Positions 4,965-63,855 are shown, counted from the first letter of the stretch. The stretch is 64,000 bases of DNA from Escherichia phage ph0011 (OP557969.1); one strand, 5' to 3'. The notes: generated from the sequence alone by a model not told the origin. Translations and numbers: made by a program.

Positions 4965-4966
4965 AC

Positions 4967-5446
4967 ATGAACAACTACCCCACTTATACAGAACGTGCAA
5001 TGGAATTTAAACGTCAGTTAGCCAAGGATGAATTAGAATTTAATTTGTATTATCCTAATATTGGTGATGAGGTATTGTATAGTTCTCATGCTAAGAATGG
5101 AACTTTACTTCATTCCGGTAAAGGTATTGTTGTGGATATGATTAGTACGTTTAAAGGAAAACTTAATGTAATGTACAAAGTACAAGATTCAAGTACTAAG
5201 TGTATTCATGAAGTGATGCATAATATACCTACATACCCAAAAGATTTTGTTGAGCTAATATCTCGAAGGGAGAAACCTATGTTCTATTGTGGTTACGACA
5301 AATTAACCAAACAAATTATTCCTAATACTATGGGAAAATTTAAAAGTGATGTAAAATCTGAACTTAATAAGAAATTAGGTTCTTCATGGGAAACTGAAAA
5401 CGAGTTTATCGAAATTCGTTTAATTGAAGTTACTATTCTTGATTAA
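4967..5446 (+). CDS. hypothetical protein
   Basis: ORF; start set at first ATG after MTase stop (MNNYPTYTERAMEF). Confidence 0.45.
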   Translation: MNNYPTYTERAMEFKRQLAKDELEFNLYYPNIGDEVLYSSHAKNGTLLHSGKGIVVDMISTFKGKLNVMYKVQDSSTKCIHEVMHNIPTYPKDFVELISRREKPMFYCGYDKLTKQIIPNTMGKFKSDVKSELNKKLGSSWETENEFIEIRLIEVTILD

Positions 5447-5447
5447 T

Positions 5448-5480
5448 TATAAATCCACGCATTGCGTGGATTTTTTCATA
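5448..5480 (+). terminator. rho-independent terminator hairpin
   Basis: AAATCCACGCATTGCGTGGATTTTTT. Confidence 0.6.
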
Positions 5481-5489
5481 GGTGCATAT

Positions 5490-6005
5490 ATGACAGTTCC
5501 GTATGTTAAAATTATTAACAATATCCTTGATTTATGGGAAGATGTTATTACCGGTAAAAAGAATCCAATACCAGTACACGTACTAACTGGAAGACTACAA
5601 TTCAGAATGTCTAACAAAACTGAAACGTTTAATAATCATGATATTTGTATTACATTAAAAACACCTGTTAGTATTGTAATTAAAAAAAATAAAGATGATG
5701 AATTGTCATTATCTATTGGTCGTGATAAAATTATTTTAAGTAATTTGTCTGAAGAAGAATTCTTTCAAAGAAGTACTATCATCGACATGAAAGATTTCAC
5801 ATATGAATCATTAGTAGAACTCAATACACGTTTTGATGATATTCAGGAACGATTGCGACCAATACTCCGTAGAGAAGAAGAAGCCTGGATTGAAAGTATG
5901 AAGAAGATGCAAGAAATGTTAAAAGAAAATATTAACAATCTTGGTAAAACAACAATGGAAATTGGTAAAACTTTAAAACTCAACTTTTCAAAGGATCGTA
6001 AATGA
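5490..6005 (+). CDS. EExFFQxST motif family protein
   Basis: start moved to MTVPYVKII after terminator; motif EEEFFQRSTIIDM. Confidence 0.5.
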   Translation: MTVPYVKIINNILDLWEDVITGKKNPIPVHVLTGRLQFRMSNKTETFNNHDICITLKTPVSIVIKKNKDDELSLSIGRDKIILSNLSEEEFFQRSTIIDMKDFTYESLVELNTRFDDIQERLRPILRREEEAWIESMKKMQEMLKENINNLGKTTMEIGKTLKLNFSKDRK

Positions 6006-6454
6006 AAATCGATGAACTGATTTATATTTTAGGTAACTTGCACAAAATATTGTTACATCGCAACGAGATGAATAAACTAGGGTATAATATAACTAATTTA
6101 AATGAAACATCATTTAAATATAACTCAATCACTGGTGGAAATTATAATATTGTGTATTGTCATGAAACTGACCCTGACTGCTATCAACTTACGTTATACT
6201 TTTATCCAACAAACCCTACCATTGTTCAAGACATATCATCAATATCACTTGACCCAGATGGTGAAATGAGTATAGAATATAGCTATGATTCTAAAAAAGA
6301 ATGTTACGTTGAAGATATGAAAAATATGTTTAACGATGCATATGTGTTCCAGCTAAGTACTGTACATGATGTTGGAAGTACTAATGGGCAATTTTGGAAT
6401 ACATGCTATTATCATATGATTGGAATTTGTAAATTACTAAAAGGCGATGATTAA
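6002..6454 (+). CDS. EExFFQxST motif family protein (divergent)
   Basis: ORF 150 aa; motif DAYVFQLSTVHDVG. Confidence 0.5.
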   Translation: MKIDELIYILGNLHKILLHRNEMNKLGYNITNLNETSFKYNSITGGNYNIVYCHETDPDCYQLTLYFYPTNPTIVQDISSISLDPDGEMSIEYSYDSKKECYVEDMKNMFNDAYVFQLSTVHDVGSTNGQFWNTCYYHMIGICKLLKGDD

Positions 6455-6837
6455 TGAAATACAGCATTGAAGTACATTACACTACTGGTGATACTGAAAA
6501 TCAATATAACATAGTTAAGACCATTGATGTTCAATGGGATACTAAAGAGGAAGCAGTTGCTGCTTTACAGTGTCTAAAAGAGCATTGGGTGTTTTATATG
6601 AAGCAAGATAATTGCCATACAAAAGAACGCGAAACTATCGTTAAAAATGCTAAACAAAAAGAGTGGTTTGACCCAATTTCACCAGAATATTCATTTTTGG
6701 TTAAAGTTGGTGGCGTGACAGTACCCTTACGAACACCGTGGAACGGCTACTTTGAAACTCTTCATAATGCACGAGTTGTCGCTGTTGACAATCCTGAACA
6801 AATCGATTTTGATTCATTGGACTGGAAAAAATTATGA
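6454..6837 (+). CDS. hypothetical protein
   Basis: ORF 127 aa, ATGA-coupled. Confidence 0.45.
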   Translation: MKYSIEVHYTTGDTENQYNIVKTIDVQWDTKEEAVAALQCLKEHWVFYMKQDNCHTKERETIVKNAKQKEWFDPISPEYSFLVKVGGVTVPLRTPWNGYFETLHNARVVAVDNPEQIDFDSLDWKKL

Positions 6838-7277
6838 CAGTACTGCACCAATTGAAGAAGGTTAAGCATCCAGTTGTATATGAGGACTGGAAACGTCAGA
6901 AGCTGATGGGTGACTTTTATTACCCAAAATCTAAAGTTCTTGCGAATTCAAGATGTACATATATCAAACATAACGATAAAGATACAGTATTTGTTGAAAT
7001 GGGGTTCAATCCATCAAATACAATGTTCAGTACTAACCAAACATTTTACAAATTTCATATCCAAAAAGATGTATTTTCTATTAAAATTATAAAACATTTA
7101 GTTGAAGATCTGGTATACAGTGAAGAAAGAGTTCCTTTATCATTAGTGGATATTCCTTATAATAATTTAGAGGAAATGTACTTCCAACAGTTGACAGTAC
7201 AAGAAAACTTTGGTATGATAGGACTTCAAGAGTTAGAGATGATTAAGCAAATTCGTGATATCTACTTTAAGGGGTAA
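6834..7277 (+). CDS. EExFFQxST motif family protein (divergent)
   Basis: ORF 147 aa; motif EEMYFQQLTVQENFGMIGLQELE. Confidence 0.5.
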   Translation: MTVLHQLKKVKHPVVYEDWKRQKLMGDFYYPKSKVLANSRCTYIKHNDKDTVFVEMGFNPSNTMFSTNQTFYKFHIQKDVFSIKIIKHLVEDLVYSEERVPLSLVDIPYNNLEEMYFQQLTVQENFGMIGLQELEMIKQIRDIYFKG

Positions 7278-7279
7278 CT

Positions 7280-7423
7280 ATGCCAGTACGTAACAGTACT
7301 TCACGCTTTACGCTTCAACAGAAAGCAGATCTTTTGAATATGGCAAACAAAGATTCTAATTATTACTATCTAGTACTCGGTGGTTCAGTTGAAAAGATTG
7401 ACCTACGTGCGTGTATGAAATAA
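7280..7423 (+). CDS. small hypothetical protein
   Basis: 47-aa ORF read from sequence (MPVRNSTSRF...). Confidence 0.3.
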   Translation: MPVRNSTSRFTLQQKADLLNMANKDSNYYYLVLGGSVEKIDLRACMK

Positions 7424-7436
7424 CAAAGGGGATAAA

Positions 7437-7607
7437 ATGAGCTTACGTGAATCATGGGAACAATTTAAAGAAGAGATTGGTTATCGTGGTGTTAAGATTG
7501 AACAAATCAATCGTACTGAAAGCATCAAAGCTAGTACTAATGGAACTACCTATGATCGTTATGATGAAAAGTATGGTTTACATTCTAAACCAAAGGATAC
7601 TGAATAA
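7437..7607 (+). CDS. small hypothetical protein
   Basis: 56-aa ORF (MSLRESWEQFKEE...), GGGG upstream. Confidence 0.3.
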   Translation: MSLRESWEQFKEEIGYRGVKIEQINRTESIKASTNGTTYDRYDEKYGLHSKPKDTE

Positions 7608-7750
7608 TGGTGTATACTAACATTTTTACTGGTATTATGCGTAAGTTTGTTAATGGTATTGGATATGTATCCAATGACAACGGTAGTACATGGGTAAAAA
7701 ATAATACGTCCGAATCTTTAGTGAAAAGTCTTCCGTATTATAAAGCTTGA
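7607..7750 (+). CDS. small hypothetical protein
   Basis: 47-aa ORF (MVYTNIFTGIM...). Confidence 0.3.
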   Translation: MVYTNIFTGIMRKFVNGIGYVSNDNGSTWVKNNTSESLVKSLPYYKA

Positions 7751-7775
7751 CACATGAAAATGGAGTATGTATAAT
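7746..7775 (+). promoter_or_regulatory. sigma70-type early promoter
   Basis: TTGACA (7746-7751), 18-nt spacer, TATAAT (7770-7775). Confidence 0.55.
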
Positions 7776-7810
7776 ACTCCAATATTAATCAAATGAGGAT
7801 ATGCGAAATG

Positions 7811-8380
7811 GCTGGTGTTGATAAAATTTGTGAATTCAGTGGCGATTATGAAGGTTACGAAATGTACAAGTCCAAGCGTAATCACATTCAAGTACTGTCA
7901 AAATATCGAAAACATTTTCGTGGACATAAAGCAACATTGTATATTTTTGAGAATGGATATTCTGAAGTTTTCACAAGTGGTGGGTACAGTACAGCTAATA
8001 TGGCACATATCAACCCAAACCCAACTGAAGATGATTGGAATAGTGGTAATGCTTTTCGTATTTCAATTTTGAATAAAATGAATCGATACGACCGTTATTG
8101 TACATTCTTTGAAAATATTTCAGAATACAAGCAAGCATTAAAGAAATATAATCAACGCTTACTAATGAATTATGATTACATTCTTCATGTACCTACTGTT
8201 CCAGGTCAGGTTAATGGTCTGTACACGAACAGTACACATGATTTAACTGCGGTGAAGCGTCGTCTTAAACGTATGTTGGGTCATGGAAAACTAACTATCA
8301 AGATTATGCGTAATGAATCTATGTATAACTTTTTAAATGTTCTTCATTACACATTAAAGGATAAAAATGGAAGCGATTAA
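7811..8380 (+). CDS. hypothetical protein
   Basis: ORF; start 7793 or 7811. Confidence 0.45.
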   Translation, partial: AGVDKICEFSGDYEGYEMYKSKRNHIQVLSKYRKHFRGHKATLYIFENGYSEVFTSGGYSTANMAHINPNPTEDDWNSGNAFRISILNKMNRYDRYCTFFENISEYKQALKKYNQRLLMNYDYILHVPTVPGQVNGLYTNSTHDLTAVKRRLKRMLGHGKLTIKIMRNESMYNFLNVLHYTLKDKNGSD

Positions 8381-8564
8381 GTTTATTTTTGAGGTACTTA
8401 TTGCATTCATCGTATGTACTGTATCTATTGCTATTTCTTTAATCCCAGTCATCATTTACCAAGTCTATGGTGGCACAGACCAAACAATTGATATGCTTCT
8501 TCGTTGTTTTGGTTTCTGTATATGGTTGATTATGTTTATGTACTATATGCATATTGAGGACTGA
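8367..8564 (+). CDS. small membrane protein
   Basis: 65 aa, hydrophobic. Confidence 0.4.
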   Translation: MEAIKFIFEVLIAFIVCTVSIAISLIPVIIYQVYGGTDQTIDMLLRCFGFCIWLIMFMYYMHIED

Positions 8565-8566
8565 TT

Positions 8567-9397
8567 ATGTCATTGGAAAAATTAATCATTTCCGAATTCC
8601 GAAAGTACATCATGGATTGTGATAGAGATATCCAGCGTAAATTCAATGAGTATCTTGACAAATATCCATATTTGATGTTTAATCCATTTGAAACTCAAAC
8701 CGATGTTAAACTTGGATTTTACATTGGGTTTACTCAACGAATTCTACAACAATATGAGATGAAACAGGCAGAGGTTTGGGTAGAAACTGATTCGAATGAG
8801 ACGAATGTTTTTTACCTGTACTCTTATTATGCGGAAATTGTTAGTTCAATGACACTAGAAGGGTATCTATTCGTCAAAACATCTGATATTGAAAAAATAT
8901 ACATAGAACCTGTATCTTTGGATATGGTTGCCCAGCTTCCGACTATCCAGCAAATGGATGCGAATGAATTGACATATTCAGTATTTGAGTACCTTAATAG
9001 AGATGATTTAACTCAAGAAATTGAGAATATGGTTGCATCATATACTTCAACTCTTATATCTAATGGTTCACTTAGAATAGAACTGATTTACGACGATACT
9101 AGTACTAATGCAGTACGAGGTACTCGAATTGGAAAAGTTACTATACGTGTTGTCCACAATGATGTAGTACTTGGTTATATTTCGAAACGTGGTCATGACT
9201 TGTGTATGATTAACGCATATGTTATTGACCGAAAAGAATGGAACGATTTAATGCAAAAAATCGTAGACGGAAGTGGAATTCGTGATATAATGAGTAATGA
9301 AACAGTGATAATTAATCCTGATATTGACTGTGATGTATATTTTCCAGTTCCTGGATTTACACTACGTAATTTTGGTAAATTAAAGGATACAAAATGA
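8567..9397 (+). CDS. hypothetical protein
   Basis: ORF 276 aa. Confidence 0.5.
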   Translation: MSLEKLIISEFRKYIMDCDRDIQRKFNEYLDKYPYLMFNPFETQTDVKLGFYIGFTQRILQQYEMKQAEVWVETDSNETNVFYLYSYYAEIVSSMTLEGYLFVKTSDIEKIYIEPVSLDMVAQLPTIQQMDANELTYSVFEYLNRDDLTQEIENMVASYTSTLISNGSLRIELIYDDTSTNAVRGTRIGKVTIRVVHNDVVLGYISKRGHDLCMINAYVIDRKEWNDLMQKIVDGSGIRDIMSNETVIINPDIDCDVYFPVPGFTLRNFGKLKDTK

Positions 9398-9684
9398 AAA
9401 TTTTAGAAGTTTTACTTGAAAAAGATGCATCTGGTACTCTTTATGTTGGTAATGATTTCAGTCCTGATCCAATTGATATGATACAGCGTATTCAATCACT
9501 GACCCAATCAATTTCAGTTAAACAACCTTTCCTAAAAGAATTGGAAATTCATTGCGATAAAGACATGGAGCAGCATGATAATGTTATTTCTGATATCAAA
9601 AATCTGTTGACAAAGAATGGATATGTGGAGTATAATCCTCCTATCGTAATCGTTATCCCTGACTTCATGAGAGGAACATTGTAA
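9394..9684 (+). CDS. hypothetical protein
   Basis: ORF 96 aa ATGA-coupled. Confidence 0.45.
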   Translation: MKILEVLLEKDASGTLYVGNDFSPDPIDMIQRIQSLTQSISVKQPFLKELEIHCDKDMEQHDNVISDIKNLLTKNGYVEYNPPIVIVIPDFMRGTL

Positions 9685-24620: not shown

Positions 24621-24649
24621 AAAGCCACTACACTGTAGTGGCTTTTTTT
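24621..24649 (+). terminator. rho-independent terminator
   Basis: AAAGCCACTACACTGTAGTGGCTTTTTTT. Confidence 0.65.
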
Positions 24650-24816
24650 ATTATTCGTTGTAACCATCAAATACAGGTGAAATAATATTATCTATATCAT
24701 AAACGATAATACTACATCCACTAAGCTTATATCTTCCCCCGATATAATTGTTCTTGACATTTATTCCACCATTGGTATAATTATTATAACATATTTATTA
24801 GGTATAACAAAAAAGT

Positions 24817-53914: not shown

Positions 53915-54228
53915 TGGATATAGTAACATTGATTTACACGTTGTATTCATTCTATTTTATTATGTGTTGGATTGGATTTTTATTTGTACTGAAGACGTTT
54001 GATTATGTTGAAAGACAGATAAAAGAATTTTGTATTCCTTTTATTGGGTCAACCATAATTAGTATTACTTGTTTGTATTATTTGGTATGTGATCCACCAG
54101 ATAACACTGCAATGATTGACTTTATGTTAGCACCAACTACTGTTATTTTTTTATGTAGTCTGCTGCCACCTATTAGTCGTGGGTTAGCAGAATTTAGACG
54201 CAAACAAAAGCTTAAACGAGGGATGTAA
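53914..54228 (+). CDS. small membrane protein family A, member 8
   Basis: tandem position, TM-rich, basic C-terminus. Confidence 0.45.
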   Translation: MDIVTLIYTLYSFYFIMCWIGFLFVLKTFDYVERQIKEFCIPFIGSTIISITCLYYLVCDPPDNTAMIDFMLAPTTVIFLCSLLPPISRGLAEFRRKQKLKRGM

Positions 54229-54596
54229 TGGAAATCACACTTATTATATTAACTTCTATGTTGTTTATTAGTACAGTTGTTATTATTGGCAAGTTCTTCT
54301 GTGTATCCTTCTTGGAAACCGTATATGATGAAATTGCAGATGATTATGAATTAGAAGCAGGATTTTTTATTACGTATTGGGTTAGTTTATTACTGCTTAT
54401 CACAGTATGGGTTTTGCATATATTCCAATGGGGTATGGTTGGTGATGATCCATTACTGGGAATTATTTGTGCGACATTTGGGCTACTGACTGGTGCTGCC
54501 CACAATCTGATAGTAATTGTGCAAACTATAAAATGCGTATTAGTTCCACATTTTCAGAGAATGCACCAAAACATTAAACGCCGCAAACGAGGTTAA
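54228..54596 (+). CDS. small membrane protein family A, member 9
   Basis: tandem position, TM-rich, basic C-terminus. Confidence 0.45.
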   Translation: MEITLIILTSMLFISTVVIIGKFFCVSFLETVYDEIADDYELEAGFFITYWVSLLLLITVWVLHIFQWGMVGDDPLLGIICATFGLLTGAAHNLIVIVQTIKCVLVPHFQRMHQNIKRRKRG

Positions 54597-54597
54597 T

Positions 54598-54960
54598 ATG
54601 AACGGGATAGAGTTATCTGTGTTTGGTCAATCACTAATAATTATTAATACTTTCTTTTTCTCACTTAATTCATTTATGTGTATTGGGAAGTATTTTCATA
54701 AACGACCATTATCAAATATATATGATGTAATTCAAACGAGATATAGTCCAGCATATACTATAGTTATTAGCAGTTTCAATTTTGGTTTTGTTTTATTAGT
54801 AATTGGAATGTTAACATCAACGTTGAATATCATCACATTCGGTCTTATGATATGTTCATTGGCATTAACATTAGTTATATGTTGTTTAGTACTACACCTT
54901 ATGGTTCTATTATATTTAAAGATATATGAAATTCACCACCGCTTAGGTACGAGGAAATGA
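54598..54960 (+). CDS. small membrane protein family A, member 10
   Basis: GKYFHKRP; TM-rich. Confidence 0.45.
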   Translation: MNGIELSVFGQSLIIINTFFFSLNSFMCIGKYFHKRPLSNIYDVIQTRYSPAYTIVISSFNFGFVLLVIGMLTSTLNIITFGLMICSLALTLVICCLVLHLMVLLYLKIYEIHHRLGTRK

Positions 54961-54961
54961 T

Positions 54962-55333
54962 ATGAGTTATCGTGAAGTATTTTCTATAATTTCAATTATT
55001 ATGTTCAGTGCTGGAACATTGATTTGGTTACTATACTTTTTCTGTATTAATCCAGTGTATAATATGTTATGCAATATTAAATCAAGTACTGGCTATATGA
55101 CTTTTATGATCTTTATGGGATATTATTGTCTAAGCATTTTAGGTGTTTTTTTTGTTGTTATATTTGATATAGGGCCAAACAAGGACGGTCTACAAATGTA
55201 TGAGTTAATAACTATGTTTGGGTGTATGATACCAACCGCACTAATGTTTGTAGCTATTGGTTCTGGATGTATAAAGTTATACAATTATTTAAAATCCATT
55301 CATCATTACATTCATAATAAACGTATGTCCTAA
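54962..55333 (+). CDS. small membrane protein family A, member 11
   Basis: tandem position, TM-rich. Confidence 0.45.
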   Translation: MSYREVFSIISIIMFSAGTLIWLLYFFCINPVYNMLCNIKSSTGYMTFMIFMGYYCLSILGVFFVVIFDIGPNKDGLQMYELITMFGCMIPTALMFVAIGSGCIKLYNYLKSIHHYIHNKRMS

Positions 55334-56026: not shown

Positions 56027-56037
56027 TTTAAAATATT

Positions 56038-56063
56038 AAAGCCAGTGCTCTCGTACTGGCTTT
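56038..56063. terminator. bidirectional terminator hairpin between convergent genes
   Basis: AAAGCCAGTGCTCTCGTACTGGCTTT. Confidence 0.55.
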
Positions 56064-56067
56064 AATA

Positions 56068-57213
56068 TTATTTTTTCCAAGGAAGTAACGAAGTTGGAAT
56101 TTTGATAGGTATATTTGATGAAACAACATCAGGAAAATTTGCATCCCCACAAACATACAAATTATCGTCTTCGTCTATCAACAATATATAGTTGTAACTT
56201 CTACAAAACCCATTTAAACTTCTTCCCTCTAATGCAGATAAATTTATTTCAGTGAATTGTGTTATATATGTTTCATTTGAACCAACACCACATTGACCAT
56301 TAGCATTTATACCACAAGTAAGCAATTTATTATTGTTTTGAATTATACATGATGGTCCAGCAAGGTTCGTACCTAGTTCACCTACAACATTAACCTCACC
56401 TTGTAATGATAAATTTGGAATCACTGTACTCATTGGGACACGAGATGTATTTCCAACACCGGCTTGACCTGAACCATTAGTGGATGCTACTTTAACAGTA
56501 CCGTCATTAAGAAAAATATAAGATGTTTCGATTGTATTAACTGCTTGAGTAGCTGATGTTATTGACGTATCCTGTTTGAAACTAAGTACATTTGTTGTTG
56601 TCGAACCAGAGATAAATGTAGCACCTGCGTACCAATATGTTCCATCCTGGAGTACTAAACCAGTACTTCTAATTGAACACCCAGCACTTCGAACATTTTC
56701 TATATGACTATATGTAAAGGTTGATACAATTGAAGATTCACCATTACCGAATACCCCACCAGTACCTGCACCACAGAAAAACCATTTGCCGTTTTTCAAA
56801 AATACACGCATACAAGCAGAAATAACCACACTATCAATATCACTTGCAGTTACACCAAAATCGGTAAAGAAATGAGTTATATCAATCCAATTGCCACCAG
56901 TATTTGATGGGAGATGTGGAATTACCACTCTAGTCCCTGTGTACCAGATTGTATCATCATCTTTAATAACAAGCGTACCTTGAACACCACCCCAATACCT
57001 GATTACATTAGTATTAACAAGTGTCCACTCAGTAGATGATTCCGTTGAGCCATTACCACCTTGACCATATGATGATGAACCACACCAGTATAAATCGCCA
57101 TTTTTATTTAAATAAAATTTTGCATCAGCCGAACATTGTAATCTGTATTTGAATACTGTTTTTGGTGCTGGTGCAATATTTGCATACTTAATCATTCTTC
57201 CAAAAGGTATCAT
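56068..57213 (-). CDS. beta-propeller (RCC1-like repeat) protein, MLPFGRM family paralog 5
   Basis: start MIPFGRMIKYANIAP after GGAGG; repeats like DLYWCGSSSYGQGGNG. Confidence 0.55.
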   Translation of the reverse strand: MIPFGRMIKYANIAPAPKTVFKYRLQCSADAKFYLNKNGDLYWCGSSSYGQGGNGSTESSTEWTLVNTNVIRYWGGVQGTLVIKDDDTIWYTGTRVVIPHLPSNTGGNWIDITHFFTDFGVTASDIDSVVISACMRVFLKNGKWFFCGAGTGGVFGNGESSIVSTFTYSHIENVRSAGCSIRSTGLVLQDGTYWYAGATFISGSTTTNVLSFKQDTSITSATQAVNTIETSYIFLNDGTVKVASTNGSGQAGVGNTSRVPMSTVIPNLSLQGEVNVVGELGTNLAGPSCIIQNNNKLLTCGINANGQCGVGSNETYITQFTEINLSALEGRSLNGFCRSYNYILLIDEDDNLYVCGDANFPDVVSSNIPIKIPTSLLPWKK

Positions 57214-57284
57214 ATTTCCTCCTTTATCCATTGTACTGTATTTAATCCAAATTAGAAAAGCCAGTATCAAGTACTGGCATTGTA

Positions 57285-58634
57285 TTATTGTAATGGAATT
57301 TCAGTGAGTGTTTTATATGTACTTCCGTTATACACCCCTCTCCAATATACTTTACCATCAGTGCTAATCACTAATAATCCATATGTTGTAAACCCAAGAG
57401 TACCACCAACATACATAGCATCTTTGATTCTAATACCAATGTCTTCATATGTAAATGACGCGACCGCACCCGCTTGCCATGAAGGACTAGCGTAGTAATC
57501 ACTATAAACACCATGTGCTTTATATATTGATGTTGTTCCTGGTTCAAAAATTACAGTTCCACAGTAGTTCATTCGTATTTTAGTACTGGATGACGTTGGT
57601 ACATTTATACCCACGTCATCTTTTATCCCTGTGGTTAGAACGTTAAAACCCCCCGCCACACGGTTGACATCATTCTCACCGATTGAATACATACCAACGT
57701 TGTAGCCCATATAATACACACTAGAACTTCCATTCCAGAAAGAAAAACCACCACCATTACCACAGCGATATAGTTGTGAATTTGAGCAGTACATCATACC
57801 TTCGTTTGTTGCATCAAATTCATCTGCTGTTCCGATCACAGCCACTGTAGTCCATGTTTTAATCACTTGGTTTGCACTAGCGGGTTTTTGAATACCATAT
57901 CGTATATTATATCCTTTACCGACTATTGTACCATCTTCTAATTTGGCATAAAGTACAGGTCTATTACCAACAAAATACATATTATTGTGTGACATGTCTA
58001 TTGTACGTCTTAATGAAACTACTTTTTTTGTCAATTGATTATCTTTAGTAAAAGACGTAAAGTAGTAATCCGATGTTGAATTGTTTATTAAACCTTGTAT
58101 TGACAACCCCATATACCAGATTTCTCCCTTACTATTCAAAGCTGCCAAAATACAACTATATTTTGAAGTGTATGTTGGGTTTACTGAAGTTGCTGGTCCT
58201 TTGTCATATCCACCACAGAATACCATCTCCACAACTTCACCTACGTTAGCAAAATAAGAAGATACGTTGATAAAACCATTTGTTATAAAAGGTGCTGTAT
58301 TTATACTTGAATGTGTGAATATCCCATTTGCATATACACCACAAAAATGATATGAACCATCATTATCTTGGACTATTATCCCATTTGATAGTAACCAAAA
58401 ATTGTTTACATTTTTTCTTACTAATTCGATTCCTGCCCCATTAGTTGGTGTTATACCAAAAGAAACATATTTTGTTTGACCAATTCCATATAAATTTCCA
58501 TTTGATGCTAATATTGCACCAAACCAATTACCACCACCATTCTTGTTATGACCCATGCCGATAGAATCGAATTTCTTAACAGTAGGAATTTGTACTTTAT
58601 TTCCATAATTCATCATCCTTCCAAAAGGTAACAT
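57285..58634 (-). CDS. beta-propeller-like repeat protein, MLPFGRM family paralog 4
   Basis: MLPFGRMMNYGNKV; GGAGG RBS; repeats NLYGIGQTKY, QLYRCGNGGG. Confidence 0.55.
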   Translation of the reverse strand: MLPFGRMMNYGNKVQIPTVKKFDSIGMGHNKNGGGNWFGAILASNGNLYGIGQTKYVSFGITPTNGAGIELVRKNVNNFWLLSNGIIVQDNDGSYHFCGVYANGIFTHSSINTAPFITNGFINVSSYFANVGEVVEMVFCGGYDKGPATSVNPTYTSKYSCILAALNSKGEIWYMGLSIQGLINNSTSDYYFTSFTKDNQLTKKVVSLRRTIDMSHNNMYFVGNRPVLYAKLEDGTIVGKGYNIRYGIQKPASANQVIKTWTTVAVIGTADEFDATNEGMMYCSNSQLYRCGNGGGFSFWNGSSSVYYMGYNVGMYSIGENDVNRVAGGFNVLTTGIKDDVGINVPTSSSTKIRMNYCGTVIFEPGTTSIYKAHGVYSDYYASPSWQAGAVASFTYEDIGIRIKDAMYVGGTLGFTTYGLLVISTDGKVYWRGVYNGSTYKTLTEIPLQ

Positions 58635-58705
58635 ACTTCCTCCTTATTCATCATACTATATTTAATACAAATAAGAAAAGCCAGTATCAAGTACTGGCTT
58701 TTACA

Positions 58706-59896
58706 TTACAATTGTCTAGGTGTATCCAGAACATATCTATTTGTTTTAGGACCACCATCATCATAAGTTCCGGTTGAATATATATTTTTCATATCAGCAG
58801 TTAGGAAAGTACGCAACGAACCGCGATATATTTTTATTTTATCATACATAGAATATGTTATTTCTGACGGCAATGGACATGCAGTAAATTTACCAATGGT
58901 AGCATCATAACCAACACCCAATGTGCCAGCATAACTACTCGCATTTAAACCAGTTGCATATACACCTGCACTCGTAACTAGTATACTAGATTGTGCTGGG
59001 TATCCAGTATGGATTGAATAATAAGTACCGGGTGGTAATGTAGCACTATTATTTCCTAAAACTCCATTAACATTGCTAGATGTAGTTTTATTTCCCCATG
59101 CTCCATTATTAGCTAATCCACCAACTAGAAACTGACGTGCTCCTGTACTTGGATTCTCTACTAAAGCACTGACAGCACCAAATGAACAAACAGTATATTG
59201 TAATGTTTTTGTATATGTGGTACTTGGCTGATATAAAGTATATTCATTAAATGGTGTCCATGTGGTACTAGTACTTATGCCAGATGTACTACCACCAATA
59301 TATAAATTATTTTGTGTATCAAAAAACATTGCACAGTAATTTGTTGACTGTATTTGTGCAATATCTACATCTGGTGTTACCGCTTTAACAAATGAACCAT
59401 CTGATATTTGATAAGTAGTTCCTGTACCATCTGCGAATTGTCTAGCACTATTCCACCCTGTACTCCATATTGTATTATTATCCATTAAGAAAGTAAACCA
59501 CGTAGTACCTGCATACATTTGTTTAATTGAAGTACTTGAACTTTGTTTGTACAAATTTTCAATATATTGGTTATAACTTAAAAACGTAGTAGTACTAGTT
59601 TCTAAACCAATATGACTACCATATCCACAATAAAAATAATTTAAGTCATTATCTTGAACTAACAAAGTTCCTTGTGTCATCCAGCAATCTTTGACATTTT
59701 CTCTAATTAATGTCCACGACCTTACTGCATTATTATTTCCTCTACCAAACTTCCCCCAACTATTACTGCCTCGTGCGTATAGTTGACCGTCGGTATAAAG
59801 TACAACAACCTCAGTATCAGTTGGTATTATTTTCTTAATTTGAAGTGGGACGGGTACAATATTCCCGTACTTAACTATTCTCCCAAAAGGTAACAT
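58706..59896 (-). CDS. beta-propeller (RCC1-like repeat) protein, MLPFGRM family paralog 3
   Basis: MLPFGRIVKYGNIVP; repeats QLYARGSNSWGKFGRGNNN. Confidence 0.55.
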   Translation of the reverse strand: MLPFGRIVKYGNIVPVPLQIKKIIPTDTEVVVLYTDGQLYARGSNSWGKFGRGNNNAVRSWTLIRENVKDCWMTQGTLLVQDNDLNYFYCGYGSHIGLETSTTTFLSYNQYIENLYKQSSSTSIKQMYAGTTWFTFLMDNNTIWSTGWNSARQFADGTGTTYQISDGSFVKAVTPDVDIAQIQSTNYCAMFFDTQNNLYIGGSTSGISTSTTWTPFNEYTLYQPSTTYTKTLQYTVCSFGAVSALVENPSTGARQFLVGGLANNGAWGNKTTSSNVNGVLGNNSATLPPGTYYSIHTGYPAQSSILVTSAGVYATGLNASSYAGTLGVGYDATIGKFTACPLPSEITYSMYDKIKIYRGSLRTFLTADMKNIYSTGTYDDGGPKTNRYVLDTPRQL

Positions 59897-59966
59897 ATTC
59901 CCTCCTTATTCATTATACTATATTTAATACAAATAATAAAAGCCAGTATCAAGTACTGGCCTATAT

Positions 59967-61136
59967 TTAAACTGGCGAATCTAATATAAATTCTAAACTA
60001 CTAATGCCACCATATGTGACATCTGTTCCCGTGCTATATACAAAATTACCATCAGTTATATAAGTTCGGTTATAACTACCTGCCATCTGTGACTTACTAT
60101 AATCAAACCCATCAGGTACGATTGCTTTGGTATATACTAATGCATTAGTAGATGTACCAATACCTAACATACCAGCTTGTGTAGATTGATTGTAGCCGCA
60201 ACAATATATACCATCTGTTGTAGCAATAACTTGGTTATAATTTGAAGTATTGTTAGCAATGCTTACTACATCACCAGGTGGCATTAGTGATGCTGTTTGT
60301 ACATCAAATGCTCTATAATCTTTGAGAGAACCATCTTTCCCATCTGCTTGTGCACCAAATATTCTTGAACCACCATTTGCGATGATAGTTTTACCAGTGG
60401 GATCAGTGCCTATTGCCATTGCCATTGAAGTACCATTATTCACATAGTACTTTATATTAATTGTATTACTTAAGCTGGTAGGAGCACCATAATATATATT
60501 ATATAACTTACTTCCTGAACTTGTAACTGCATTGACTCTTCCTGTATAAAATAACCATCCTTGGCTTGTAACATAACCGTGCATTAAATTACTTGCAAAC
60601 AATTTAACAGGTAATTGATTTGCTGCGGTAGGAACAGTACTTTTGACGAATCTACCAGAAACATTGTTAATTGTTGTCCCATCACCCAACTGACCATCCG
60701 ACCCTACTCCAGTACTCCATATTGTTTGGTCTGATAGTAACACACTTGTAGTCTGATAACTAACGGCTATATCTAATATTGGTAATGTTAATGTATTGAA
60801 TATAGGCATAGCAGATGTCCATATTGATACTCCTGACCCTTTCATACCAACAGTTGTTGAACTTCCACTGTACCATATTTCATTATTGCTTTTCTTAACA
60901 ACTATCGACGTGGCTCCCATCCAAAAATCTTCAACACCAGAAGTACTAAAAGTCCATGTAGTAACAGTATTTTTGTGACCTAAACCCAAAATACCATATG
61001 CATTATCACCACGCACATATAAATCACCACTGTTTGTTAAAACAGCAACATTATAGTTGTTAGCAAGTATTTTTTTAATATTTGGTTTAGCAGGTGCAAT
61101 ATTCCCGTACTTAACCATCCTCGCAAAAGGTAACAA
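59967..61136 (-). CDS. beta-propeller (RCC1-like repeat) protein, MLPFGRM family paralog 2 (TTG start)
   Basis: (M)LPFARMVKYGNIAP; initiation codon is TTG where paralogs have ATG; repeats DLYVRGDNAYGILGLGHKN. Confidence 0.5.
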   Translation of the reverse strand: MLPFARMVKYGNIAPAKPNIKKILANNYNVAVLTNSGDLYVRGDNAYGILGLGHKNTVTTWTFSTSGVEDFWMGATSIVVKKSNNEIWYSGSSTTVGMKGSGVSIWTSAMPIFNTLTLPILDIAVSYQTTSVLLSDQTIWSTGVGSDGQLGDGTTINNVSGRFVKSTVPTAANQLPVKLFASNLMHGYVTSQGWLFYTGRVNAVTSSGSKLYNIYYGAPTSLSNTINIKYYVNNGTSMAMAIGTDPTGKTIIANGGSRIFGAQADGKDGSLKDYRAFDVQTASLMPPGDVVSIANNTSNYNQVIATTDGIYCCGYNQSTQAGMLGIGTSTNALVYTKAIVPDGFDYSKSQMAGSYNRTYITDGNFVYSTGTDVTYGGISSLEFILDSPV

Positions 61137-61213
61137 AATTAAATCTCCAAAATTAAAATAATTATATAGTATTTACAAAAAATACTAGTACATATTTCAG
61201 TACTGGCCTATTA

Positions 61214-62335
61214 TTAAAAGGGCAACGGTAACTCAGTAAAAGTACTTACGTCCGGTAAACCATACATTGAATTAGCATCACCACAGTAATACCACTTCGT
61301 AGAATCATGTACCACCGATAAACGCTGTGCACATAACACTTCCTGTATGTCATTAAACACCATCGGGACTAACTCATATGTATCCGCAAATGAAGATACA
61401 CCACCACTCGCATGAAAAGTATTCGTCCCAGCATAAAATAACTGATTAGTGTTCTTACCCACAGCAAATGTCATCAAATCCCCATCATTCTCCCATAAAG
61501 AAGAAAACTTATCAACACTACCAGAAAGCTCTGTGTAAGTACTCGTAATGGCATTCGCCGCCGCCGCATTACCCATCTGTTTATTCAAGTTCTGTCCAGC
61601 AATAAAATATCTCGTTCGTGCACTAGAATCAGTATATAATAACCCAGTGTTCGTAGTCATCATTCCAATGTCCTTAATCGTCATACCAGTCTGTGAATAA
61701 CTTAGATACGAAGTTAAATTAACATTATTACCCAACGAACCGTTAGAACTCATACCACAACGATGTAATATACCACTTGTATCAACGTAGATAGTACTAA
61801 CTAAACTCGTATACAACTCTTGTACATTATTCGCAATAAACACAGCAGTCGCCTTATTACTAACCCCACCAAATGATAGGTTATTATCAAATCCCTTAGC
61901 GTATAATTGATTATTAGTAGTCAATAATCCAATCGTGTAATAAGACATTTTCATATCCCTTACTGTACTCAAATCTACTGCCCCAAATTGATACGTAACA
62001 TCTGTCCATTTGAAAATCTGTGCACTACCAACACCACCCGTTTCAAACCATTTGTCACCACAGTACAATATGCGATTATCCTTAGTAAAGATAACTGTTA
62101 ACAATCCACTACCACACGCAAACTTTACATCACTTCTAACCTTCGTCCAATCACGTACATAGGTAGTGGTGTTATTACCTATACCTAACTTGCCATAACG
62201 GTTATAACCACGCACCCATAAATCACCACTCTTAGTAATTAATAGTAATGCGTCTCCTGTACTTATTATTCGAAATCCCGATCTAGGATCAGGTACAATA
62301 TTCCCGTACTTAACCATTCTCCCAAAAGGTAACAT
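61214..62335 (-). CDS. beta-propeller (RCC1-like repeat) protein, MLPFGRM family paralog 1
   Basis: MLPFGRMVKYGNIVP; repeats DLWVRGYNRYGKLGIGNNTT. Confidence 0.55.
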   Translation of the reverse strand: MLPFGRMVKYGNIVPDPRSGFRIISTGDALLLITKSGDLWVRGYNRYGKLGIGNNTTTYVRDWTKVRSDVKFACGSGLLTVIFTKDNRILYCGDKWFETGGVGSAQIFKWTDVTYQFGAVDLSTVRDMKMSYYTIGLLTTNNQLYAKGFDNNLSFGGVSNKATAVFIANNVQELYTSLVSTIYVDTSGILHRCGMSSNGSLGNNVNLTSYLSYSQTGMTIKDIGMMTTNTGLLYTDSSARTRYFIAGQNLNKQMGNAAAANAITSTYTELSGSVDKFSSLWENDGDLMTFAVGKNTNQLFYAGTNTFHASGGVSSFADTYELVPMVFNDIQEVLCAQRLSVVHDSTKWYYCGDANSMYGLPDVSTFTELPLPF

Positions 62336-62384
62336 ATTTCCCTCCTTTATTCATCATCTCATATTTACCCCATAAAGAAAACAC

Positions 62385-62413
62385 TTGACACCCTTTCAGT
62401 ACTGTTGTACAAT
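62385..62413 (+). promoter_or_regulatory. candidate promoter
   Basis: TTGACA-N17-TACAAT; + strand resumes after the minus-strand island. Confidence 0.5.
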
Positions 62414-62438
62414 AGAAGGAATATAAGGAGAACTACAC

Positions 62439-62666
62439 ATGACAAATACACTTAAGTACTACATTAATACTCTGTCCGACCTAGAGTACGCGAAGTTTCT
62501 CGCGGATAGTTCGTGGTTGATTGGACTAAAAACACATAACAGCCCCGGATGCACCCTTATGATGTACAATGCTATTGATACCCTTATAGTGAGTATTTTA
62601 CATAGCAACATCTACGGGGATAACAATAAACAATTATCAAAAATCTTAGTACTGCTATCTCTATGA
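62439..62666 (+). CDS. small protein family B member
   Basis: YYINTLSDLEYAKF. Confidence 0.45.
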   Translation: MTNTLKYYINTLSDLEYAKFLADSSWLIGLKTHNSPGCTLMMYNAIDTLIVSILHSNIYGDNNKQLSKILVLLSL

Positions 62667-62875
62667 ACACTATGAGCACTGAACAGTTCTACATCAATGC
62701 ACTACCAACTAAAAGTCTTCAAGAAAGCCTACTGTATACACAAAAGAATCTTAAAAACTTCAAACATTGCCCTAAACTACTGAACTCGTACAGAAATAAT
62801 ATCATAAGTAATGTTTTACAAGGAGAAGAAAGTATGCAATACTATCACATCCTTATCCTTATATTGGAGTACTAA
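62663..62875 (+). CDS. small protein family B member
   Basis: FYINALPTKSLQESL...NVLQGEE. Confidence 0.45.
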   Translation: MNTMSTEQFYINALPTKSLQESLLYTQKNLKNFKHCPKLLNSYRNNIISNVLQGEESMQYYHILILILEY

Positions 62876-62876
62876 T

Positions 62877-63062
62877 ATGTATAAAGATTTCTATTGCAGT
62901 AAACTACACAAGCAATACAGGGATACATTCCCTAAAGAACCTATGCAAATGAATAGTCCCTTTTATAAATTTGACTTCAGACTGGAGACACGTTATGCAA
63001 TAGAACATCAATTCCATGAAACTAAGTACTTATCTATCATGAACCTCATCTTTAAGTTCTAA
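62877..63062 (+). CDS. small hypothetical protein
   Basis: start MYKDFYCSKLHK. Confidence 0.35.
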   Translation: MYKDFYCSKLHKQYRDTFPKEPMQMNSPFYKFDFRLETRYAIEHQFHETKYLSIMNLIFKF

Positions 63063-63073
63063 AAGAGTACTAT

Positions 63074-63286
63074 ATGAAAACTATGAACATACACCAGTAC
63101 TACTTAGATATTCTCCCTAAAGATGTACAGTTCATCCTTAAACAAGAATACAGTACTTTAAAAAACCTTAAAAGAACCGCACCGAATGCATTAATCCTGC
63201 ACCAAAAAAATGTAGTTGATAATATTCTACAAGGTGTACCAGGGACCGAGTACTTTAACATAATAAGGCTAATTACATTACCATGA
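63074..63286 (+). CDS. small protein family B member
   Basis: YYLDILPKDVQFIL...NILQGVPG. Confidence 0.45.
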   Translation: MKTMNIHQYYLDILPKDVQFILKQEYSTLKNLKRTAPNALILHQKNVVDNILQGVPGTEYFNIIRLITLP

Positions 63287-63468
63287 ATCATATATTATAC
63301 TATTACCAAAATCTATCCGACAGGGACAAGTACACCCACAACTCCAATGTATGGTACTACAAACGCGGTAGTATAAGAGACAAACAACATTACTTCTGTA
63401 TTGCTATAAAAGAAGCACTAACAACTAAGTACACGTACAGAGCAGTACTGAAACTTATTGATATGTAA
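63283..63468 (+). CDS. small protein family C member
   Basis: C-terminal KYTYRAVLKLIDM. Confidence 0.45.
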   Translation: MNHILYYYQNLSDRDKYTHNSNVWYYKRGSIRDKQHYFCIAIKEALTTKYTYRAVLKLIDM

Positions 63469-63478
63469 AGAGAATAAT

Positions 63479-63661
63479 ATGAGCATTGAATTGTACTTAA
63501 GTAAATTACAGCCTGGCGATAGATTCATCTACAATAAGTTCGAATCCAACTACAAGAACGGGAGCAACAAATATCGTCGAGGATACCTATATACAAGCAC
63601 AAGAGATGCACAAAACGAAAAGTACACATACAGAGAAGTACTAAAACTTATCTCTATATAA
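63479..63661 (+). CDS. small protein family C member
   Basis: C-terminal KYTYREVLKLISI. Confidence 0.45.
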   Translation: MSIELYLSKLQPGDRFIYNKFESNYKNGSNKYRRGYLYTSTRDAQNEKYTYREVLKLISI

Positions 63662-63669
63662 GGTAATAT

Positions 63670-63855
63670 ATGAACAATTTTGAGTACTATACCAATAAAC
63701 TATCTATGCCTGAAAGATCTCATCTCTATGTGTGGAGAAATGCGTATAAAAACGGAAATAAACTTATACAAAGAAATTCCCTTACAGTGTGTACCAATTT
63801 AATTAAAGCAGAGTACCGTACATATATTGAAGTACTGAAACTTATCTCTATCTAA
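63670..63855 (+). CDS. small protein family C member
   Basis: C-terminal YRTYIEVLKLISI. Confidence 0.45.
   Translation: MNNFEYYTNKLSMPERSHLYVWRNAYKNGNKLIQRNSLTVCTNLIKAEYRTYIEVLKLISI

Follow-up and report, generated by a model that had tools for sequence, protein, structure and literature searches.

A shared 12-residue amino-terminal leader, carried by an array of RCC1-like protein genes in an Asteriusvirus phage, is a candidate virion-incorporation tag

A 64,000-nucleotide stretch of the genome of Escherichia phage ph0011 (OP557969.1, hereafter the window) contains a minus-strand island of five genes at positions 56068–62335, the products of which share a 12-residue amino-terminal leader with the consensus M-L-P-F-x-R-Φ-x-x-Y-G-N, while their bodies are mutually only 20–26% identical. 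The reading we favour, at a probability of about 0.55, is that this leader is a fold-independent virion-incorporation tag, which probably docks variable binding modules on the tail, a fibre or a whisker, and that the genes form an array recombined at its junctions. By sequence comparison, the window belongs to an Asteriusvirus genome (121Q/phAPEC6 group). The island DNA is 84–96% identical, in a patchy fashion, to that of the Asteriusvirus jumbo coliphages (121Q, PBECO4, phAPEC6, A4 and others), and none of the public phage records covers 80% or more of the island.

The five open reading frames (ORFs), named E, D, C, B and A, were found by ORF listing at the positions given in an earlier note on this DNA. 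That note had called them the only substantial minus-strand coding in the window; over the island and the 56 kb before it this is borne out, as the minus strand of positions 1–56000 does not contain any ORF of 180 amino acids or more. The sign of the GC skew reverses across the island (56068–62335). The genes and their leaders are:

61214–62335, minus strand: gene E (cassette type T06), 373 amino acids; leader and predicted RCC1-like seven-bladed propeller
62300–62335, minus strand: 36-nucleotide leader of E (MLPFGRMVKYGN)
59967–61136, minus strand: gene D (T07), 389 amino acids, TTG start; leader and predicted RCC1-like propeller
61101–61136, minus strand: 36-nucleotide leader of D ((M)LPFARMVKYGN)
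58706–59896, minus strand: gene C (T02), 396 amino acids; leader and predicted RCC1-like propeller
59861–59896, minus strand: 36-nucleotide leader of C (MLPFGRIVKYGN)
57285–58634, minus strand: gene B (T10), 449 amino acids; leader and divergent beta-rich body, propeller partly supported
58599–58634, minus strand: 36-nucleotide leader of B (MLPFGRMMNYGN)
56068–57213, minus strand: gene A (T01), 381 amino acids from the ATG; leader variant MIPFGRMIKYAN and predicted RCC1-like propeller
57178–57213, minus strand: 36-nucleotide leader of A (MIPFGRMIKYAN)

For gene A, the ORF tool extends the frame to a TTG at 57270. The most likely start is nevertheless the ATG at 57213, because GGAGG precedes it (with AAAGGAGG just upstream) and the TTG overlaps the hairpin. 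The amino-terminal peptide had been described as invariant. This is correct for residues M1, P3, F4, R6, Y10 and N12, which are the same in all five leaders, but positions 2, 5, 7, 8, 9 and 11 vary. Neither the leader motif nor the hairpin GCCAGTACTTGATACTGGC or the box TTAAATATAGTATAATGAATAAGGAGG, both described below, occurs again within the 64 kb outside the island.

A tblastn search, together with a scan of 2.9 million viral contigs for the DNA pattern, showed the leader to be confined to Rak2-like jumbo phages of about 320–390 kb, infecting Escherichia, Salmonella, Cronobacter, Erwinia, Yersinia, Klebsiella aerogenes, Serratia, Pectobacterium and Xanthomonas, with a few uncultivated contigs also carrying it. 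At the syntenic locus of phage CBB, flanked by small membrane-protein genes, seven genes are located that all begin with MLPF…YGN or YAN, and Serratia phage BF has an array of at least nine genes starting with MLPFPIISN… or MLPFARIVEYGN. In BF, the form MLPFPIISN(T)… is present on most RCC1-like and glycine-rich genes and coexists with MLPFARIVEYGN or MLPFPIMNKYGN on others; MLPF alone is common to all tagged proteins across the genera. According to Pfam, the leader heads Kelch propellers, Laminin_G_3 proteins (a ConA-like lectin fold), Gly_rich_2 proteins, RCC1-like proteins and proteins without a match. On this sequence evidence, the leader is independent of the fold behind it. The suggestion of a targeting peptide that directs different cargoes has gained from this diversity, many of the tagged proteins also having been verified in virions. 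A 548-amino acid protein starting with MLPFYSVKDYAN (MLPFYSVKDYANAGK…) is encoded on two IMG/VR contigs of 20–23 kb (4385–6031 and 893–2539); it may be a remote tagged protein from a phage that is not of the jumbo lineage, or may have matched by chance, and was set aside. In the searchable literature (subscription journals were outside the search), no description was found of the shared leader, its spread over unrelated folds, its concerted evolution or the junction module.

Tagged proteins of related phages are virion-associated. Six phAPEC6 proteins detected by mass spectrometry (MS) in purified virions (gp003, gp005, gp006, gp007, gp009 and gp010; PMC7247149) are, by size and coordinates, six members of its array, gp003 being the ortholog of gene D. 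The MS-verified proteins CBB_548, 549, 551, 552 and 553 correspond to five of the seven tagged array genes of CBB, as confirmed by coordinates, and both GAP32_001 (RCC1-like) and GAP32_002 are virion proteins. In a scan of 70 kb of phAPEC6, gp077, the lone opposite-strand virion gene, was found not to have the leader tag. Outside this lineage, three tandem RCC1-like proteins of phage W70 (Vequintavirinae) have been verified by MS in virions (PMC11370258). Three full-length leader-bearing genes of phAPEC6 (MK817115; 3–1145, 2434–3543 and 6063–7253) are absent from its GenBank annotation and were therefore out of reach of the published MS of virions; the annotation of gp002 begins at 3506, and its leader ATG is at 3614.

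The AlphaFold2 (AF2) model of gene E, with a predicted template modelling (TM) score of 0.79, has an all-beta body starting at residue 22, with residues 1–19 at a predicted local distance difference test score (pLDDT) below 50. When the model is compared with the PDB using Foldseek, UVR8, the RCC1-like domains (RLDs) of HERC2, RPGR and RCC1 come out on top, with TM-scores of 0.75–0.78 and E-values down to 8e-19; for eukaryotic RCC1-like domains the TM range is 0.7–0.78 and the sequence identity 13–17%. From the model and these matches, gene E is predicted to encode a seven-bladed RCC1-like beta-propeller, and the leader lies outside it. Genes A, C and D match the Pfam family RCC1_2 (24.5–31.9 bits, cut-off 22) and D additionally matches RCC1 (27 bits, cut-off 21.7); the RCC1 repeat score of E is slightly under the Pfam gathering cut-off and B does not have any Pfam match. 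All five match phrog_4219, with E-values of 3e-97 for C, 4e-95 for A and 4e-16 for B. The AF2 model of B is poor (pLDDT 51), with blade-like sheets only to about residue 265. Of the five propellers proposed earlier, the predictions for E (from the model) and for A, C and D (from the RCC1 repeats) are solid, but that for B, with its PHROG match and poor model, is tentative. The AF2 alignments were shallow, because few homologues were found in a set of 5.8 billion proteins (three matches in single-sequence searches and 11 in profile searches). Among solved structures, no phage entry of this family was found by searching the PDB and using Foldseek. The cargo, that is the protein behind the leader, is 25–50 kDa in size, with a median isoelectric point (pI) of 6.7, a net charge of 0 and 40% Gly, Ser, Thr and Asn, and contains 6.2% lysine plus arginine, versus about 10% in the other ORFs of the window. 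By composition, it does not have the DNA-binding, basic character expected of RCC1 proper.

The DNA of the leader shows two superimposed patterns. Between non-orthologous cassettes, the first 12 codons are 86–91% identical in nucleotide sequence, versus 30–40% from codon 13 on; identity is thus not uniform along the genes, in agreement with what had been judged by eye. The Pro3 codon is CCT in 56 of 56 Asteriusvirus array genes and the Lys9 codon is AAG in 32 of 33; for comparison, Pro15 is encoded by CCT in 23 cases, by CCA in 17 and by other codons in four. Leader DNA clusters by phage (none of 2000 label permutations reaches the observed value) and not by cassette type (478 of 2000 do). This grouping indicates that the leaders have been homogenised within genomes by concerted evolution. 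Phage-typical leaders contain …G/A-R-M-V-K… in the window, 121Q and phAPEC6, …V-R-M-L-E… in A4 and …V-R-M-F-D… in vB_Ec-M-J. Both vB_Ec-M-J and UE-S1 hold minorities of the other leader type, consistent with recent import of cassettes. At position 9, six Asteriusviruses together have 33 lysines, 14 aspartates, four asparagines, four glutamates and one valine; the five genes of the window have lysine or asparagine, and glutamate is found only in some CBB, BF and A4 proteins.

Substitutions in the invariant codons are almost all in the third position (0.109, versus 0.01 and 0.005). The leader is retained on cassettes lacking an upstream junction. In vB_Ec-M-J, a solo RCC1-like paralog located far from the array carries MLPFARMVKYGN encoded by other codons (CTT, CCA, GTG and GGA), and in distant lineages Pro3 is encoded by CCA in 27 of 32 genes. 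As far as such codon comparisons can tell, the leader peptide is under purifying selection. An RNA-level cause of the frozen codons was considered and rejected: the five initiation regions have z-scores of -0.1 to +1.05 versus shuffled sequences. A possible pairing of the Shine-Dalgarno sequence with CCUUUU is lost where Pro3 is CCA. The solo gene of vB_Ec-M-J (OQ718158, 6001–7173) is unannotated, encodes 390 amino acids and has its own ATAAATA…TATATAAT box; it is located between nrdG and three large Gly/Ser/Thr/Asn-rich paralogs, EcMJ_234–236 (phrog_3573, function unknown).

Leader-bearing ORFs were taken from the syntenic locus of phAPEC6, A4, 121Q, vB_Ec-M-J and UE-S1, and their bodies were clustered at 60% identity. 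The arrays have the following sizes:

Window: five genes (T06, T07, T02, T10 and T01)
A4: seven to eight genes
UE-S1: nine genes
phAPEC6: 12 genes
121Q: about 12 genes plus fragments
vB_Ec-M-J: 14–15 genes

At least 24 types of cassette are represented in the six Asteriusvirus arrays, and their order is roughly conserved. So are the flanks, one of which consists of small membrane-protein genes and the other of an array of tiny ORFs. Between phages, orthologous cassettes are 59–97% identical: gene E is 96–97% identical to its UE-S1 and vB_Ec-M-J orthologs, gene B is 93% identical to A4_238 and gene D is 79% identical to phAPEC6 gp003, while gene C has orthologs in all five compared phages. A Kelch cassette, EcMJ_585, is also present in Asteriusvirus arrays, as is the glycine-rich cassette T08, which does not match any Pfam family, belongs to phrog_4474 (function unknown) and resembles BF gp377 (Gly_rich_2) by eye only. 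Array content differs widely among near-identical phages. From phage to phage, one cassette body can be found behind differing junctions and leader variants; the T07 body, for instance, is preceded by a second junction variant in the window, by the standard junction in A4 and by none in phAPEC6. Because of this gain and loss, these exchanged contexts and the genome-wise homogenised leaders, cassettes have apparently been gained, lost and swapped by recombination or gene conversion at the junctions, and the comparisons bear out the recombination-driven cassette system proposed before.

Within these arrays, several 121Q cassettes are split (9395–9601, 5708–5932 and neighbours), and pieces of 68 and 74 amino acids still start with the leader, which points to frameshifts, to decay of the cassettes or to errors in sequencing. 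In A4 (5837–8774), two leaderless minus-strand genes, A4_236 (668 amino acids) and A4_237 (314 amino acids), take the place of the distal array end and of the 215-amino acid flank gene. The authors of the phAPEC6 study regarded the paralog array as evidence of genome growth via tandem duplication (PMC7247149).

The genes are separated by repeated junctions, in which a terminator hairpin is followed by a TAAATA-N3-TATAAT box, by GGAGG and then by the leader. The intergenic elements, in the direction of transcription, are:

62336–62438, minus strand: region upstream of gene E, with TAAATATGAGATGAT box (62353–62367) and AAAGGAGGG; divergent from the plus-strand gene at 62439
61137–61213, minus strand: junction E-D, second variant, with weak hairpin (61185–61206, -6.3 kcal/mol, z -0.6), TAAATACTATATAAT box (61161–61175), GGAGA and TTG
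59897–59966, minus strand: junction D-C, with hairpin (59940–59962, -13.8 kcal/mol, z -3.3), TAAATATAGTATAAT box (59912–59926) and AAGGAGGG
58635–58705, minus strand: junction C-B, with hairpin (58676–58702, -14.1 kcal/mol, z -4.4), TAAATATAGTATGAT box (58650–58664) and AAGGAGG
57214–57284, minus strand: junction B-A, with hairpin (57260–57278, -10 kcal/mol, z -3.6), TAAATACAGTACAAT box (57230–57244) and AAAGGAGG
56032–56069, bidirectional: terminator ending the array (-19.1 kcal/mol, z -7.5), between gene A and a convergent plus-strand ORF of 215 amino acids

The common junction has the consensus ATGCCAGTACTTGATACTGGC-TTTTCTTTTTTGTATTAAATATAGTATAATGAATAAAGGAGGGAATT-ATG. The hairpin and ribosome-binding site before gene D had been described as degraded and altered. 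They belong to a shared second variant, CCAGTACTGAAATATGTACTGG-TATTTTTTGTAAATACTATATAATT…GGAGA, which also precedes several vB_Ec-M-J and UE-S1 cassettes; private to the window phage at this junction are only the change from ATG to TTG and one stem mismatch. The earlier note had also made each gene its own transcription unit. This fits C, B and A, but E and D may be co-transcribed, because the hairpin after E is weak.

Sigma-70 promoters were considered for the junctions and rejected: sigma-70-like sites are not enriched (34 found, 34.4 expected) and the junction box does not have a properly spaced -35 element. Structural genes of CBB and GAP32 are preceded by a late motif, ATAAATA, and a T4 gp55-like sigma factor is encoded (PMC5259590). 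The TAAATA core of the junction box is similar to this motif. Away from the array, 50 kb of phAPEC6 contain three copies of TAAATA-N2-6-TA[T/A]AAT that have a gene downstream, and two of these three genes (gp077 and gp037c) belong to the four MS-detected virion genes of that region. The lack of a sigma-70 signal, the resemblance to the late motif and the presence of the box at virion genes suggest that the junction promoters are probably late. A TAAATATGTTATAAT box is located elsewhere in the window (24640–24800, minus strand), together with a Shine-Dalgarno sequence, an ORF of 22 codons (MSRTIISGEDISLVDVVLSFMI*) and a terminator hairpin. At this position phAPEC6 has gp077, of 384 amino acids and starting with MSRS…, which was detected by MS with 10 peptides; it seems that its counterpart was deleted in the window phage and that the expression signals were left behind.

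In the mechanism we propose, the island would be a hypervariable, late-expressed array for accessory virion proteins. Each protein would consist of the 12-residue tag, a short unstructured linker and a ligand-binding body, here an RCC1-like propeller. The tag would be a docking peptide that plugs interchangeable modules onto one shared tail, fibre or whisker site, so that the particle would display a phage-specific set of adhesin heads. The junctions would supply each gene with its own expression signals (the T4-late-like box and GGAGG) and, together with the 36-nucleotide leader, would serve as homology patches for the gain, loss and swapping of cassettes and for homogenisation of the leader. 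We infer that the tag causes incorporation, that its destination is on the outside of the particle and that the bodies bind host surface ligands. An external, ligand-binding role is suggested because propeller and lectin folds are generic ligand binders (no depolymerase domains were found in the cargo), because RCC1-like propellers are fused to tail-fibre shafts in other phages or prophages, for example in the Pseudomonas phages Littlefix and PollyC (BFVD), because tailspikes of RaK2 carry amino-terminal peptides of their own (see below) and because the solo paralog after nrdG has the position and orientation of the RaK2 tailspike cluster. The composition of the cargo, which is neutral, has few charged residues and is 40% Gly, Ser, Thr and Asn, fits this reading as well. 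The nearest non-jumbo homolog, P0008, matches tail-fibre PHROGs with its first 200 residues (E-value 5e-14). A wider version of the proposal, which we put at somewhat less than even odds, takes MLPFxRΦxxYGN as the portable loading tag of a "tagged accessory virion proteome" of the Rak2-like phages. Dozens of lectin-like heads (RCC1-like, Kelch, ConA-like and glycine-rich) would then occupy one tail or whisker receptor site, each phage would have a recombination-shuffled adhesin library, and the tag would be usable to load arbitrary cargo onto or into particles.

Several observations weigh against a docking tag on the particle surface. The array is located among early-type small genes, outside the main structural module, and the late timing of its promoters is read from motifs only. 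MS coverage of the phAPEC6 array members is low (one to four unique peptides, 3–17%), and literature and structure searches did not yield any experiment or structure locating these proteins on the particle. As for a docking partner, EcMJ_234–236, beside the solo paralog, fall in PHROGs of unknown function and do not have BLAST similarity to the RaK2 tailspikes. Nor do propellers and lectin folds resemble the usual trimeric receptor-binding proteins. A single phage holds both …MVK… and …MFD… leaders, and a docking partner would thus have to accommodate different charges at position 9. The capsid-targeting sequence (CTS) of phage T4 shows that the same gene logic can serve packaging in the capsid interior.

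This last point leads to the main rival explanation, that the leader is a CTS-like sequence by which cargo would enter the prohead core, be packaged alongside the DNA and be ejected into the host, where it could serve, for instance, against defence systems. The Rak2-like phages have T4-like head genes, including prohead core scaffold and protease, phAPEC6 has an inner body, some leaders have Φ-x-E at positions 7–9 (RLIE, RLVE, RIVE and RMLE), recalling the T4 gp21 site, and rapid turnover of the array fits an arms race. However, a protease site is not conserved, as position 9 can be K, N, D, Q, R or E, with E never seen in the five genes of the window, and in genes E and D acidic residues are missing from the surroundings of the tag. 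Unlike the internal proteins of T4, which are small and basic, the cargo described here is neutral, lysine-poor, 25–50 kDa in size and of propeller or lectin fold. The MS coverage is not that of proteins present in hundreds of copies, and elsewhere RCC1-like propellers are fused to tail fibres; we regard packaging into the head as unlikely. More doubtful still is a leader that is bound transiently by a phage assembly factor (a chaperone, modifying enzyme or protease) for folding or maturation, without being an attachment point. Such a role would suit an unstructured leader that lies outside the fold and is common to several all-beta folds, and phage fibre proteins do have dedicated chaperones, such as T4 gp57A and gp38. 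But no candidate factor was found, the virion association of most tagged proteins would still require an incorporation determinant, and the parallels with W70 and RaK2 point to attachment peptides.

The public annotation implies something else, namely that these are DNA-condensation or inner-body proteins and that their shared amino-terminus is incidental. The proteins are in virions, and the phAPEC6 authors speculate on a role in the inner body. The label, however, derives from the name of the eukaryotic RCC1 fold and not from a tested function, the near-neutral composition given above (median pI 6.7, 6.2% lysine plus arginine) argues against it, and a structure as large as 91 x 18 nm sits badly with the low MS coverage. 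Moreover, the tag is also found on Kelch, lectin-fold and glycine-rich proteins, and array content that varies among near-identical phages is unexpected for a core packaging component. The annotation as DNA condensation proteins is not supported, and we consider this explanation very improbable. Little credence is likewise given to the conserved 5' end being a nucleotide-level element (a translation-initiation structure, a regulator-binding site or a recombination site) or a gene-conversion hitch-hiker, with no function for the peptide. The nearly frozen synonymous sites of the Asteriusvirus arrays, the homogenised leaders and the ability of CCUUUU to pair with the Shine-Dalgarno sequence would fit such an element. 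Against it, the peptide is kept with other codons in distant lineages and in the solo copy, the leader is present on junctionless cassettes, its invariant codons vary almost exclusively at third positions, the initiation regions are no more stable than shuffled sequences and the Shine-Dalgarno pairing is lost with CCA.

On one side of the island, three tandem paralogous genes for membrane proteins of about 120 amino acids flank the array (54228–55333, plus strand); similar triplets are located beside the tagged arrays of 121Q, phAPEC6 and CBB/GAP32, so this synteny is conserved across genera. On the other side (62439–63855, plus strand), tiny tandem ORFs of 60–83 amino acids share a conserved carboxy-terminus, …Y-x-E/A-V-L-K-L-I-S/D-I/M, and also have amino-terminal motifs resembling Y-Y-x-N-L-S; 121Q contains about 17 such ORFs. 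The GC skew of this region is still negative (-0.21) despite the plus-strand ORFs, unlike in the rest of the window.

Arrays of the 121Q, PBECO4 and phAPEC6 type have been annotated as "DNA condensation proteins" for a decade; the genes of relatives also bear the names "regulator of chromosome condensation", "putative DNA condensation protein" and "HERC1". The whiskers (appendages) of these jumbo phages, which are therapeutic candidates, do not have assigned genes. With a tag that goes along with virion incorporation and is common to several folds and genera, the function of the arrays becomes directly testable. If it is a docking peptide, the arrays would be a second, fast-evolving layer of host interaction, which could explain host-range differences of near-identical phages, and the tag would offer a ready means of engineering jumbo phages for display or for the loading of cargo. 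In that case, leader and junction, with their concerted evolution, would be a clean natural example of a translated homology patch driving cassette shuffling.

The paralog arrays ("RCC1 / DNA condensation proteins") and their virion association have already been published, and the proposed design can be compared with several known systems. The nearest in concept are the amino-terminal "conserved peptides" of 7–11 residues by which secondary receptor-binding proteins dock on a T4gp10-like branching domain, described for the groups K1E/K1-5/SP6, KP32/KP34, Menlow and ΦK64-1/RaK2 (PMC6872550) and since validated (PMC13352976). As in the island, where it has 12 residues, a very short amino-terminal peptide is present on otherwise unrelated virion proteins of one phage, with a variable specificity module behind it, and the genes are horizontally exchanged. 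The design is even found in the same jumbo lineage: in RaK2 (NC_019526, 17765–40683), MxNxLIQPKGSxSK starts ORF526w, 527w, 529w and 530w and MSLSNLS- or MSLIQLS-type sequences start ORF531w–534, with unrelated bodies following in both classes, and this tailspike cluster directly follows nrdD-nrdG. The island differs in that its peptide is unrelated in sequence, its array is separate from the tail-fibre module, its cargo consists of monomer-type propellers and lectin folds without depolymerase domains, and attachment is putative.

The T4 CTS, a conserved amino-terminal peptide of about 10 residues on IPI, IPII and IPIII, directs diverse cargo into the particle (PMC3012670). It has in common with the leader that a short conserved peptide heads diverse virion cargo, the set of which varies between related phages. 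There is no sequence similarity, though, the leader does not end in a prohead-protease site (L/I-x-E), and the island cargo is neutral, larger and apparently low-copy instead of small, basic and abundant. PeSL terminator/promoter cassettes mediate modular shuffling in T4-type phages (PMC2839356, PMC4122927). Here too, a repeated stem-loop terminator and promoter flank variable genes of a hyperplastic region, with insertions, deletions and swaps at the motif between related phages. The PeSL promoter is early, whereas the island box, with its TAAATA core, is of late type and lacks a sigma-70 -35 element; in addition, the island repeat continues past the start of the gene, so that 12 codons of it are translated as the leader, and all its cassettes would encode virion proteins of one functional class.

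An independent case is found in W70 (OP778610, 19543–23041), where W70_237–239 share the leader MLEM[L/M]NLG ahead of diverged bodies. Like the island genes, these are adjacent RCC1-like genes, encoding proteins of about 40 kDa, which belong to the same phrog_4219, have been detected by MS and have a short shared amino-terminus; they differ in lineage and leader sequence, number only three and are tightly packed, without a terminator/promoter junction. With eukaryotic RCC1, the HERC2 RLDs, RPGR and UVR8, the island proteins share the predicted seven-bladed propeller fold and RCC1 repeat signatures. For the island proteins there is no evidence of a function in chromatin or as a Ran guanine nucleotide exchange factor, their composition argues against DNA binding, and they would be stand-alone virion proteins with a lineage-specific leader. 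Overall, the design is of known kinds, combining docking or targeting peptides with PeSL-like shuffling, but in a non-homologous variant.

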